A stretch of DNA of 64,000 nucleotides from Escherichia coli (lineage in GTDB: Bacteria; Pseudomonadota; Gammaproteobacteria; Enterobacterales; Enterobacteriaceae). The notes below the pieces were generated by a model. It was given only the letters and a program-made list of their open reading frames with translations, ran no database searches and was not told where the DNA came from. The DNA is taken from assembly GCF_016026235.1 (NCBI RefSeq), contig NZ_CP065613.1; one strand, written 5' to 3'. A program made the position numbers and the translations under genes. This document shows, one piece after another, positions 2,888 through 38,621 of the stretch (its first letter is position 1; every line of letters starts with the position of its first letter).

Positions 2888-3748
2888 TTACTCCTGCTGC
2901 TCCAGCGCATACTTATACAGCGCATTTTTCTTCACGCCGTGAATTTCTGCGGCCAGCGCCGCCGCTTTTTTCAGCGGCAGTTCTGCCTGTAGCAGAGCCA
3001 GCGTGCGCAGGGCATCAGCAGGCAGGTCTTCTTCCTGTGCTTTATGACCTTCGACAATCAGCACCATTTCGCCTTTGCGACGGTTTTCATCTTCCTTTAC
3101 CCACGCCAGCAGCTCGCCAACGGGCGCGCCGTGAATGGTTTCCCAGGTTTTGGTCAGCTCACGCGCCAGAACCACGTAGCGGGATTCGCCTAATACCGCA
3201 ACGATATCTTCCAGGCTATCTAACAGACGGTGGGTAGATTCATAAAAAATCAGCGTGCGCGGCTCCGCTTCAATGGCTTTTAGCGCATCACGGCGGCCTT
3301 TTGATTTGGCAGGTAAAAAGCCTTCGTAACAGAAACGGTCAGAGGGTAAACCCGCGGCGCTTAACGCAGTGATAGCAGCACACGGTCCGGGTAGCGGCAC
3401 CACACGAATCCCCGCTTCACGGCAGGTACGCACCAGATGGTAGCCAGGATCGTTAATTAGCGGCGTTCCGGCATCGGAAACCAGCGCAATGTTTTGCCCC
3501 TCTTGCAGCTTCGCCAGCAACGTTTCGGCTTTTTGTTGTTCGTTATGGTCGTGCAGCGCAAACAACCGGGCATTAATCCCAAAATGTTGCAGCAATAAAC
3601 CGGTGTGACGAGTATCCTCGGCGGCAATCAGATCAACGGCCTGTAATACCTCTAACGCACGCTGGGTGATATCCGCCAGATTGCCGATTGGCGTCGGTAC
3701 AATGTAAAGCTGGCCCTGAGAATTATCCGCCGATTGGTGTTGTTTCAT
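2888..3748 (-). CDS. rsmI: 16S rRNA (cytidine1402-2'-O)-methyltransferase
   Basis: 286 aa; N-terminus [15 protein letters not shown] is typical of the tetrapyrrole-methylase fold of RsmI. Confidence 0.9.
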
Positions 3749-3812
3749 TGTGTCGTCCGTATTGCCGATTTAATATTGAGCATTGCGTAAAAAAAATATC
3801 ACTGGATACATT

Positions 3813-5849
3813 ATGGTACCCTCAACATTTTCTCGTTTGAAAGCCGCGCGTTGTCTGCCTGTTGTTCTGGCAGCCCTGATTTTCGCCGGTTGTGGCACCC
3901 ATACTCCCGATCAGTCCACTGCTTATATGCAGGGCACGGCGCAGGCTGATTCTGCCTTTTATCTTCAGCAGATGCAGCAAAGCTCTGATGATACCAGGAT
4001 CAACTGGCAATTACTCGCCATTCGTGCACTGGTGAAAGAAGGTAAAACCGGGCAGGCGGTTGAGTTGTTTAACCAACTACCGCAAGAACTGAACGATTCT
4101 CAGCGTCGCGAGAAAACACTGCTGGCGGCAGAGATTAAACTGGCGCAGAAAGATTTTGCTGGCGCGCAAAACTTGCTGGCGAAAATCACACCTGCCGATT
4201 TAGAACAAAACCAGCAAGCGCGTTACTGGCAGGCAAAAATCGATGCCAGCCAGGGGCGTCCTTCCATTGATTTACTGCGCGCGTTAATTGCTCAGGAACC
4301 GCTGCTTGGCGCGAAAGAAAAACAGCAGAATATTGATGCCACCTGGCAGGCGCTCTCCTCCATGACTCAGGAACAAGCGAATACGCTGGTGATCAACGCC
4401 GACGAAAATATTCTGCAAGGCTGGCTGGATCTGCAGCGCGTCTGGTTTGATAACCGTAACGATCCCGACATGATGAAAGCCGGGATCGCCGACTGGCAGA
4501 AACGTTATCCGAACAACCCGGGCGCGAAAATGCTGCCAACGCAGTTGGTTAACGTAAAAGCGTTTAAACCAGCCTCGACCAACAAAATCGCCCTGCTGTT
4601 GCCACTGAATGGCCAGGCAGCGGTATTTGGTCGCACTATTCAGCAAGGCTTTGAAGCGGCGAAAAATATCGGCACTCAGCCAGTGGCAGCTCAGGTAGCT
4701 GCCGCACCTGCCGCAGACGTAGCAGAACAACCTCAACCGCAAACCGTGGATGGCGTTGCCAGCCCGGCACAAGCCTCGGTTAGCGATCTGACCGGTGAAC
4801 AGCCTGCAGCCCAGCCGGTGCCTGTAAGCGCCCCGGCGACAAGCTCCGCAGCGGTAATCGCACCCGCAAATCCATCCGCAGAGCTGAAAATCTACGATAC
4901 CTCATCACAACCACTTAGCCAGATCTTAAGCCAGGTTCAGCAGGATGGCGCGAGTATTGTGGTCGGTCCGTTGCTGAAAAATAACGTTGAAGAGTTGCTG
5001 AAGAGCAACACTCCGCTGAACGTACTGGCACTGAACCAGCCGGAGAATATCGAAAATCGCGTCAATATTTGTTACTTCGCGCTTTCACCGGAAGACGAAG
5101 CGCGCGATGCAGCGCGTCATATTCGTGACCAGGGTAAACAAGCGCCGCTGGTGCTGATCCCACGCAGTTCATTGGGCGATCGCGTAGCCAATGCGTTTGC
5201 ACAAGAGTGGCAAAAACTGGGCGGCGGCACCGTTCTGCAACAAAAATTTGGTTCCACCAGCGAATTACGCGCGGGTGTTAACGGCAGTTCTGGTATTGCT
5301 TTAACGGGTAGCCCGATTACTCTCAGAGCGACAACCGACTCCGGCATGACGACCAACAATCCAACACTGCAAACCACGCCAACCGATGACCAGTTCACCA
5401 ATAATGGCGGTCGTGTCGATGCGGTGTACATTGTGGCAACGCCGGGTGAAATCGCTTTTATTAAACCGATGATCGCCATGCGTAACGGTAGCCAGAGCGG
5501 TGCAACGCTGTACGCCAGCTCCCGCAGTGCGCAAGGGACCGCTGGCCCGGATTTCCGACTGGAGATGGAAGGCTTGCAGTACAGCGAAATCCCGATGCTG
5601 GCAGGCGGTAATCTACCGTTAATGCAGCAGGCACTCAGCGCGGTGAATAACGATTATTCACTGGCTCGCATGTATGCGATGGGCGTCGATGCCTGGTCGC
5701 TGGCAAATCATTTCTCACAAATGCGCCAGGTTCAGGGTTTTGAAATCAACGGTAATACCGGAAGCCTGACGGCTAACCCGGATTGCGTGATTAACAGGAA
5801 GTTATCATGGCTACAGTACCAACAAGGTCAGGTAGTCCCCGCCAGTTAA
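3813..5849 (+). CDS. lpoA: Outer-membrane lipoprotein activator of PBP1A
   Basis: 678 aa from ATG 3813; lipoprotein signal with lipobox (ALIFAGC) and a long Ala/Pro/Gln-rich linker. Confidence 0.9.
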
Positions 5850-29160: not shown

Positions 29161-30519
<1,359 letters not shown>

Positions 30520-30537
30520 TATCATAGCTTTCGTGCT

Positions 30538-30563
30538 AAAGGCCGCAAATGCGGCCTTTTTTT
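30538..30563 (+). terminator. argG rho-independent terminator
   Basis: Hairpin ggccgca/tgcggcc followed by a run of 7 T. Confidence 0.6.
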
Positions 30564-30702
30564 ACGGCTAAGAGAATGTGACTGCGTTTAGGGGCCACCA
30601 TGTCCGAATTCGGAATTAAAGTAAAAGTTAAATGAAATAAAGTAAATTTCAGCGCATTCTATTTTTGCTTTATGTTTTTATGCTCAGTAAAAGGAATGAC
30701 CG

Positions 30703-31656
30703 ATGAATGGTAAATATTTTGTACGCCTCGCATTACATACTCTGAAATGCACTCAAAAAGATTTAGCAAGCCACTTAGGTGTTTCCTCAACACAAATTAG
30801 CAAGTGGAAAAAAGGGGAACACATGTCCGCTGATATGGAAAAAAAGTTCAGAAATATTACACAAATAGGAGATTATTCTCCTCAACTAGTTGAATGGACA
30901 GGCTCAGTCGCGAATGCTGAGAAATGGGATCGACTTATCCATTTTCTTGCTCGACGAGCTATGGACGATGCTGAAACGGGTTATATAACACAACTTCTTA
31001 CTGACGAAGATGGTTTTTTGGTTGAAGAAACAATTGATGTATTAAAGCGAATAGGTTTTCCTACACCTCTTTCCTTTCCTGAAGGACTTAATATTGACGA
31101 CGATAATGCTGATGAAGAAGAGGCTTTTTGGGAGATATTAGAGAGCAATGCTCATTGTTCTGTAATTAATGATATTTATCATGCTCTGAATGATGTTTAT
31201 GGTTTCTACATAGCATATGTTGATGAGTTGATTCAGGACGACGATTTAGATGTCTATTCAAGCGAAGCCATCAATATTCAGAGTTCATTGATATCACTTG
31301 CTGCATGCAAAATTGAAATTGATACTCCTGTTGCGTCAAACTTTAAAGAATTTCGTTATAGAGTTAAAAAAGACTACGAAAATTGGTTGAATCAACTCAA
31401 GATGATGGCATTCAGGGCGGGAATTCCGTTAAGAGCCGAACTTCTGGAAATGGTTTATAACACCGCTGACCAACTTAGCGTTGCAGCAGAAGCCGAACGT
31501 TTCGATTTCAATAAATCTCGCATTCATCCAGATATATACATGAACGAGATCCTTACTGGCATGAGAATAATTCACCAAGTGCTTCCGGTAATAATGCAAA
31601 AGTTAGAAATTACAGATTTCAAACTAGATGAAACAGATTTATGCCTGGGTAAATAG
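30703..31656 (+). CDS. Uncharacterised 317-aa protein with N-terminal XRE-type HTH and acidic C-terminal domain of unknown function (replaces yhbX of K-12 at this locus)
   Basis: Only long frame in a roughly 1.1-kb AT-rich block; RBS aagga lies 8 nt upstream of the ATG. Residues about 10-45 (LKCTQKDLASHLGVSSTQISKWKKGEH) fit the Cro/C1 HTH pattern. I recognise no motif in the remainder. Confidence 0.6.
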   Translation: MNGKYFVRLALHTLKCTQKDLASHLGVSSTQISKWKKGEHMSADMEKKFRNITQIGDYSPQLVEWTGSVANAEKWDRLIHFLARRAMDDAETGYITQLLTDEDGFLVEETIDVLKRIGFPTPLSFPEGLNIDDDNADEEEAFWEILESNAHCSVINDIYHALNDVYGFYIAYVDELIQDDDLDVYSSEAINIQSSLISLAACKIEIDTPVASNFKEFRYRVKKDYENWLNQLKMMAFRAGIPLRAELLEMVYNTADQLSVAAEAERFDFNKSRIHPDIYMNEILTGMRIIHQVLPVIMQKLEITDFKLDETDLCLGK

Positions 31657-31692
31657 TTATCAAATTAAGAATACTTAACCTGGCTTATAAAA

Positions 31693-31725
31693 CGAAAAAA
31701 GACGCTTTTCAGCGTCTCTTTTCTG
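31693..31725. terminator. Bidirectional rho-independent terminator (tRNA-Leu/secG operon and the islet gene)
   Basis: Hairpin gacgct-tttc-agcgtc flanked by an A-run on one side and a T-rich tract on the other. Confidence 0.55.
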
Positions 31726-31730
31726 GAATT

Positions 31731-31817
31731 TGGTACCGAGGACGGGACTTGAACCCGTAAGCCCTATTGGGCACTACCACCTCAAGGTAGCGTGTCTACC
31801 AATTCCACCACCTCGGC
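31731..31817 (-). tRNA. leuU: tRNA-Leu (anticodon GAG)
   Basis: The reverse complement reads GCCGAGGTGGTGGAATTGGTAGACACGCTACCTTGAGGTGGTAGTGCCCAATAGGGCTTACGGGTTCAAGTCCCGTCCTCGGTACCA, an 87-nt class II tRNA. Confidence 0.9.
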
Positions 31818-31831
31818 ACGGAAACTACTTT

Positions 31832-32164
31832 TTAGTTCGGGATATCGCTGGTCGGCTTAGCCGGAGCAGCTGGCTGAGTTTGTTCGGTTTTCGCCGGCGC
31901 ACTCAGGTTTTCCCATTCGCTACCTTTATTGGTTTTGTTGCTATTGATGTTACCCAGCACCAGACTGATGATGAAGAATAACGTTGCCAGCAACGCCGTC
32001 ATGCGGGTCATGAAGTTACCAGAACCACTTGAACCAAACAGCGTAGCGGAAGCGCCTGCTCCGAAGGAGGCTCCCATATCAGCGCCTTTACCTTGCTGCA
32101 GCATGATCAGACCAACAAGGCCAATTGCCACAATAAGGAAAACTACCAAAAGAGCTTCGTACAT
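31832..32164 (-). CDS. secG: Preprotein translocase subunit SecG
   Basis: 110 aa from MYEALLVVFLIVAIGLVGLIMLQQGKGADMG. Confidence 0.9.
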   Translation of the reverse strand: MYEALLVVFLIVAIGLVGLIMLQQGKGADMGASFGAGASATLFGSSGSGNFMTRMTALLATLFFIISLVLGNINSNKTNKGSEWENLSAPAKTEQTQPAAPAKPTSDIPN

Positions 32165-38374: not shown

Positions 38375-38621
38375 TTGTTATACCTCTTGAATATTCCTGA
38401 TGGGGCAAGTCTTCACCCACCCCGGCTGTTCGGCCTGCCCGGCATAACTCCTCACCGGGACCAGAAGCAAAAAAATACCGACCCAGGTACAAGTCCCAGG
38501 TCAGCTACAATTCACATTTTGATAGTCATTTTACCCTGAAGTTCCCGAAGGGTCATCGTTTACTTTATAGGGCGTTGCGCCGTAGTATGACGGCTCGATT
38601 CCAGGTTGTTAGCGCGAGATT

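Follow-up and report, generated by a model that had tools for sequence, protein, structure and literature searches.

The intergenic region upstream of a solitary helix-turn-helix (HTH) gene raises the question of which of its sequence features constitute an operator, and of which protein would bind there. In a 64,000-nucleotide stretch of an Escherichia coli genome (contig NZ_CP065613.1 of assembly GCF_016026235.1; hereafter the window), an open reading frame (ORF) encoding a 317-aa protein lies between argG and the tRNA gene leuU. It is preceded by a perfect 12-bp palindrome and by two copies of the 9-mer TAAAGTAAA, which start 21 nt apart within an A/T-rich tract (32–36% GC). The initial annotation regarded palindrome and repeats together as an operator for a dimeric HTH protein, possibly the product of the gene itself, and each of these elements was found where it had been placed. 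Our analysis gives a divided answer. We consider it probable that positions 30617-30695, beginning with the first repeat, are the promoter-operator of the 317-aa XRE-type gene, and that its own product binds there to four sites, named here O1 to O4, most likely to repress its own expression. The palindrome, on the other hand, is judged incidental. The proposed operator therefore retains the two repeats of the initial annotation (O1 and O2) and adds two further sites and the promoter elements, which had been missed.

In the mechanism that we propose, the protein would contact O1–O4 through its recognition helix, residues 29–36. O1 would stand immediately before a weak −35 element, O2 inside the promoter spacer, O3 at the predicted transcription start and O4 over the ribosome-binding site (RBS), and binding would shut off transcription of the gene (negative autoregulation). 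Self-repression is the most likely outcome because O2–O4 extend over the spacer, the start site and the leader with its RBS.

Table 1 Features of the argG–leuU region, in window coordinates; promoter elements, transcription start and operator sites are predictions.
Feature	Coordinates	Strand	Remarks
argG	29176-30519	+	
Low-GC variable segment, 1.17 kb	30520-31688		argG terminator, operator/promoter region and HTH gene
argG intrinsic terminator (likely)	30538-30565	+	10-bp GC-rich hairpin, then T-run
Perfect 12-bp palindrome, TCCGAATTCGGA	30603-30614		ends 89 nt short of the ATG (30703); O1 follows 3 nt downstream
O1, TAAAGTAAA	30617-30625	+	distal site; centre at about -46 from the predicted start; abuts the -35
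-35-like hexamer, ATGAAA	30632-30637	+	corresponds to the TTG conserved across the family some 10-13 nt past the centre of O1
O2, TAAAGTAAA	30638-30646	+	within the 17-bp promoter spacer; centre at about -25
-10-like hexamer, CATTCT (weak)	30655-30660	+	placed by alignment, 17 bp after the -35
O3, TTTGCTTTA	30664-30672	-	inverted site at about +1; degraded by A-to-G at 30667
O4, CTCAGTAAA	30683-30691	+	proximal site, about +21; overlaps the Shine-Dalgarno AAGGA (30691-30695)
HTH gene, 317-aa protein	30703-31656	+	N-terminal Xre/Cro-type HTH (about residues 1-57) and all-helical domain of about 260 aa
leuU, tRNA-Leu(GAG)	31731-31817	-	

Judged by the statistics of the window alone, the repeats are modestly unusual, and it is the comparative data that are decisive. 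The 9-mer TAAAGTAAA occurs three times in the window against 0.24 expected (none of 100 shuffles reached three copies), and the repeat extends to 13 nt (GAAtTAAAGTAAA and GAAaTAAAGTAAA). An exact 9-nt direct repeat within 40 nt arises in only 2–3% of local shuffles, and O1/O2 is the sole pair of family-type half-site 6-mers at 20–22 bp in the whole window. The only other exact copy of TAAAGTAAA, at 38559-38567 on the minus strand (TTTACTTTA on the plus strand), is a single copy with no 21-bp partner; it is probably due to chance, or alternatively could be an extra target of the regulator.

Homologues of the protein form a family of 745 database clusters (E ≤ 0.001), typically 50–57% identical to the E. 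coli protein, with source names or record titles from Gamma-, Beta- and Alphaproteobacteria, Geobacterales, Desulfovibrionaceae, Deferribacteraceae and Acidobacteria. Upstream stretches of 200 nt from 38 diverse loci with a homologue (7.6 kb in total) contain 48 copies of the motif TTTA[C/G]TAAA, spread over 29 of the loci; elsewhere in these loci, over 304 kb, there are three copies, so that the motif is enriched about 640-fold. The family consensus is an 11-bp quasi-palindrome, A-TTTA-[C/G]-TAAA-T. Relative to the ATG, motif starts are most frequent in the −100 and −30 bins; the proximal peak also takes in the −40 bin and thus extends from about −40 to −21. Of 46 pairs of adjacent sites, 21 have their centres at exactly 21 bp, the dominant spacing, and 28 at 20–22 bp, so that the 21-nt phasing first noticed in the window proves to be a trait of the family. 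Loci omitted from the first count because of start-codon uncertainty also contain the motif, mostly as a pair about 21 bp apart, and copies arranged mostly in the same way are found in loci titled Geobacterales, Acidobacteria, Deferribacteraceae and Alphaproteobacteria.

The array is preserved at closer range as well. Orthologues occupy the same place, from argG to secG/leuU, in a diverged Escherichia (L076, 88% protein identity), Citrobacter koseri (L077, 73%), Salmonella (L078, 71%) and Enterobacter (L079, 67%). We aligned the upstream regions of these four with those of two copies from integrative islands (L086 and L087) and of two Photorhabdus loci, and found conserved blocks from the first TAAAGTAAA to the start codon. 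The syntenic orthologues keep O1, the −35, O2, O3 and O4, and sequences upstream of O1 cannot be aligned. The two island homologues (L086, positions 3001-3951, and L087, positions 3001-3960; from C. freundii and an enterobacterial contig) retain the O1-21-O2-26-O3 layout between unrelated flanks. Both lie at the edge of an island, 0.1–0.6 kb from P4-type integrases (Arm-DNA-bind_3 plus Phage_integrase), which indicates that the gene also travels as island cargo, and in these cases the sites have moved with it. Insertion sequence elements, DUF4942 and DUF5983 were seen near these two homologues.

Individual sites show different degrees of conservation. The O1 core AGTAAAA is invariant in 10 Enterobacterales upstream regions, and its counterpart in the wider family is the distal TTTAGTAAA. 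O2 is conserved as TAAA[C/G]TAAA in Enterobacterales and forms a 90% inverted repeat with O3, which in L076 and in the other E. coli alleles examined reads TTTACTTTA, the exact reverse complement of TAAAGTAAA. O3 is conserved as TTTACTT(A/T)A in enteric relatives, and Photorhabdus retains the TTTACT half only. O4 has the 8-mer AGTAAAAG in common with O1; relatives have TTTACTAAA or TTTAGTAAA at the aligned position, immediately ahead of the RBS. Centre-to-centre spacings are 21/26/19 bp in the window, 21/26/20 bp in C. koseri and 21/26/21 bp in Photorhabdus.

The promoter, weak and sigma-70-like, was placed by alignment to the upstream regions of relatives. When loci of the family are anchored on the distal site, a TTG appears some 10–13 nt past the centre of this site, followed after 17 bp by a TAnnnT, with the second site in the spacer. 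The −35-like hexamer is ATGAAA in all three Escherichia alleles and TTGAAA, TTGCAA or similar in relatives outside the genus; at the −10 the aligned relatives have AATAAT (Salmonella), CATAGT (C. koseri), TAGAGT or TATAGT. On this basis transcription would start near position 30667. Conserved, repeated sites thus appear to overlie the promoter and leader of the regulator's own gene, an arrangement read from sequence comparison.

Changes in the recognition helix point to the protein that is likely to bind these sites. In a neighbour-joining (NJ) tree of the family, Thr gives way to Ala as the second residue of this helix (taken as residues 29–36 from the AlphaFold2 (AF2) model) in about six separate lineages, turning VSPTQ into VSPAQ. 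Five of these lineages have replaced TTTAsTAAA operators by the TTAAG-type sites TTAAGTAAA and TTTACTTAA, so that the operator tracks the DNA-reading residue (Thr30-to-Ala with TTTA-to-TTAA). The Enterobacteriaceae clade, with VSSTQ, has the variant TAAAsTAAA, as in the window. Because the base-reading residue and the site change together repeatedly, which would be hard to explain otherwise, we conclude that the protein probably reads the site. No other candidate recurs beside the sites: an all-against-all BLAST of ORFs in 70 loci revealed no conserved neighbour gene, and no neighbour family was present in more than five of the 70, two apparent clusters being antisense shadow ORFs of the HTH gene. 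Scanned against Pfam, 30 flanking ORFs proved to be a mix of housekeeping genes and a few mobile or defence-type ones, including rpoD, groES, integrases, HipA, Fic and SIR2-like genes. In the absence of a conserved neighbour, the HTH protein is the only constant partner of the sites. The earlier suggestion of an operator bound by the gene's own HTH product is therefore strongly supported for the repeats, through enrichment, 21-bp phasing, co-transfer and covariation; for the palindrome it is not supported.

Several points weigh against autorepression at O1–O4 as set out here. One of the Thr-to-Ala lineages, L005, retains TTTAGTAAA, and the NJ tree used for the covariation is crude. Because the motif was spotted by eye before a regular expression was used to count it, its definition is not unbiased, although the background control is strong. 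A scan for consensus sigma-70 promoters over 30400-31850 found none, and the hexamers of the window (ATGAAA and CATTCT) are poor; placement of the start, and hence the predicted geometry of repression, depends on alignment to relatives. O3 is mutated in the window and O4 is only a partial match. A quasi-palindrome of 9–11 bp is short for a classical HTH dimer, and the stoichiometry would be either one dimer per site or a single subunit on each site, with bridging across 21 bp; as a speculation, subunits two helical turns apart may be bridged by the large C-terminal domain. Literature searches by protein accession, motif strings and locus gene names returned nothing relevant on the family. Finally, O1, at about −46, could equally be an activating site.

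This last point leads to an alternative that uses the same sites, in which the protein is an auto-activator or a dual switch: bound to O1 it would stimulate a poor promoter at low dose, and bound to O2–O4 it would repress at high dose, as in the models offered by restriction-modification (R-M) controller (C) proteins and by lambda cI at PRM. O1 abuts the weak −35, the E. coli promoter hexamers may need help, and the presence of several sites of differing quality would suit such a switch. However, in many clades there is a single 21-bp pair directly before the RBS, a position from which binding would be able only to hinder expression. Activation of this kind and simple repression are computationally indistinguishable; we regard the former as possible, if rather unlikely.

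Other alternatives concern the protein itself. Its N-terminal region has a five-helix Xre fold with helix 2-turn-helix 3, and its scores for HTH_19 (PF12844; 25.1 bits) and HTH_3 (PF01381; 19.2 bits) lie below the respective cut-offs of 30.2 and 23; many homologues have precomputed matches to PF01381 or PF12844. Conservation of the C-terminal domain is high: column identity averages 67%, and the motifs HPDxYMNE and GMRxxH are invariant. Matches in Pfam, NCBIfam, PADLOC and PHROGs were confined to the HTH, as were those obtained when the family profile was searched against PDB sequences, which returned no solved structure for the C-terminal domain. The PADLOC-DB v2 defence models gave no full-length match, the HTH-limited ones having E ≥ 1.8e-4 over about 25 residues. 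A phage or plasmid origin was considered and rejected, as none of 50,697 phage records and only five of 72,556 plasmid records were matched.

One might imagine that the protein is a self-contained, mobile one-gene module for defence, abortive infection or addiction, with the helical domain as effector or sensor and the array clamping a potentially harmful level of expression. The gene stands alone, is 50–57% identical across distant phyla, is carried by some 4% of E. coli genomes and sits in a strain-variable slot beside a tRNA gene or integrases, sometimes with SIR2-like, HipA or Fic neighbours; all of this is consistent with such a module and none of it is diagnostic, and we hold the idea to be doubtful. 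Slightly more doubtful still is the proposal that binding is mainly non-regulatory, the sites serving to nucleate or anchor an activity of the C-terminal domain, with transcriptional control secondary. The conservation of this domain of about 260 aa, which matches no family or solved structure, and the patchy distribution of the gene as a solo unit would fit. Against this, the sites are always in the gene's own promoter or 5′ leader, at fixed offsets to the −35, −10 and RBS, which is a signature of regulation, and there is no evidence of any enzymatic motif in the protein.

That the palindrome TCCGAATTCGGA is the operator of a dimeric HTH protein, with the repeats as auxiliary elements, we consider very improbable. 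Its perfect symmetry, its intergenic position close to O1 and its presence in each of the five genomes sampled for the main E. coli allele speak in its favour. Nevertheless, the window contains 19 perfect 12-bp palindromes against about 15.6 expected (64000/4^6, by hand arithmetic), and one also turns up in about 11% of shuffles when the 183-nt intergenic region is randomised with its dinucleotides preserved. The dyad is broken by a single uncompensated change in the 92% E. coli allele (L084; TCCGAATCCGGA) and by a different one in L076 (TCCGATTTCGGA), and O1–O4 are unchanged in both. No counterpart is present in Salmonella, Enterobacter, C. koseri, C. freundii, Photorhabdus or about 50 other loci; columns under the palindrome cannot be aligned, conservation starts exactly at O1, and we found no sign that dyad symmetry at this position has been kept by selection across orthologues. 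Because two alleles break the dyad with the operator blocks intact, the palindrome appears to be unconstrained sequence outside the operator array. As an RNA hairpin or terminator it was likewise rejected, the possible stem being only 4 bp with a loop of 4 nt. We also observed that positions 30594-30612 read GCCACCATG followed by TCCGAATTC, a eukaryotic Kozak-like sequence with an EcoRI site that is reminiscent of cloning vectors; since the same sequence is present in sampled natural E. coli chromosomes, vector contamination was ruled out and the resemblance is a coincidence.

Just as improbable is the view that the repeats are chance or generic features of acquired AT-rich DNA (H-NS, Fis or IHF tracts, UP-element-like A-tracts), which would suit the low GC content of a region inside a foreign segment and the occasional 9-nt repeat in local shuffles, but not the occurrence of the same 9-mer at 21-bp spacing upstream of homologues in several phyla where flanks are not AT-rich, nor the enrichment of the motif over those flanks and its change together with the recognition helix.

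The order of genes in the window is infB-nusA-rimP-metY, argG, the 317-aa ORF, leuU, secG, glmM, folP and ftsH. K-12 has yhbX (phosphoethanolamine transferase) at this point between argG and leuU, on the opposite strand; here the low-GC segment stands in its place. Similarity to most E. coli genomes ends at query positions 71 and 1240 of 30450-31760, that is, it breaks at the argG stop codon and returns 42 nt before leuU. The whole intergenic region, with palindrome and repeats, therefore belongs to the variable segment, whose GC content is 32–43% against about 52% in the flanks. The version with the HTH gene is carried by 236 of 5426 complete E. coli genomes. As an orthologue fills the argG slot in Salmonella, Enterobacter and C. 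koseri, the HTH gene may be the older occupant. The junction falls inside the last two argG codons (30511-30519), where the window encodes ...NKVK* and K-12 ...NKGQ*. A 1485-bp contig from a metagenome-assembled genome (MAG) labelled 'Collinsella sp.' (L003, JAIJJM010000762.1) is near-identical to the E. coli locus, argG terminator included, and almost certainly represents E. coli DNA that was wrongly binned into the MAG of this actinobacterium.

The likely argG terminator consists of the inverted repeat AAAGGCCGCA / TGCGGCCTTT, 100% complementary with a 2-nt gap, and an equivalent hairpin is found in Salmonella, Enterobacter and C. koseri. It was missing from the output of our terminator scan, possibly because the minimum loop of the scan is 3 nt. 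An Rfam scan by E-value over 30400-31900 gave only the tRNA-Leu and sub-threshold noise, with no RNA element in the intergenic region. Given that argG adjoins, an ARG box (ArgR site, consensus TNTGAATWWWWATTCANW) was also considered, and was rejected because the sequence does not seem to fit this consensus and the site lies downstream of argG.

Within the segment, four further observations concern the gene and its leader. The A-to-G change in O3 occurs, among sampled alleles, only in the window and in FDAARGOS_943. At 30712 (GAA to AAA, Glu4Lys) the window differs from every other sampled allele, that of L076 included, and these two changes may make it a regulatory variant. Just past the stop codon of the HTH gene, at 31664-31680, ATTAAGAATACTTAAC contains a short dyad, TTAAG / CTTAA, whose arms resemble half-sites of the TTAAG-type operators of the family. 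Lastly, a 17-nt imperfect inverted repeat (76% complementary) joins 30641-30657, over O2 and the −10, with 30737-30753 in codons 12–17, which could reflect pairing in the mRNA leader, or chance.

The eye-catching palindrome thus seems irrelevant, and the plain A/T repeats are the predicted functional element. With them, a widespread and mobile orphan XRE-type family gains a testable recognition code, A-TTTA-S-TAAA-T in 21-bp phase, a likely promoter layout and a predicted determinant of specificity in residue 30, where Thr would read T and Ala would go with A at position ±2. Such a code could be used to search carrier genomes for further targets, to design probes for electrophoretic mobility shift assays and to build orthogonal repressor/operator pairs. 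Our understanding of autoregulation as such is unchanged by the finding.

Among known systems, the protein resembles the autoregulated Xre-type repressors, namely phage cI/Cro/c2, Aca proteins, R-M controllers and type II antitoxins, in its predicted mode of self-regulation, and differs from all of them in being encoded without a prophage, acr, R-M or toxin partner. The repressors of 434, P22 (c2) and lambda (cI/Cro), which likewise have several operators across their own promoter, act on palindromes of 14–17 bp and have a LexA/S24-type or short dimerisation domain, whereas the sites described here are 9–11 bp with 21/26/21 spacing, the C-terminal domain of about 260 aa has no known fold, and there is neither a prophage context nor a divergent cro-like partner. 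Aca proteins (e.g. Aca7, PDB 9lx1) and C-proteins (C.AhdI, C.Esp1396I) are 60–120 aa long and always adjoin the genes that they control (acr or R-M); the present protein has 317 aa and no conserved neighbour, and the E. coli gene lies alone between argG and leuU, in a location unlike that of phage repressor, Aca or C-protein genes. In contrast to the Xre antitoxins of type II systems (HigA, MqsA, HipB), it has a long conserved C-terminal domain and no conserved, co-transcribed toxin gene beside it, the HipA next to the L013 homologue being a single case. The protein is therefore most likely to be filed as an uncharacterised autoregulated XRE-family regulator, which would share with these repressors an ordinary mechanism of self-regulation.
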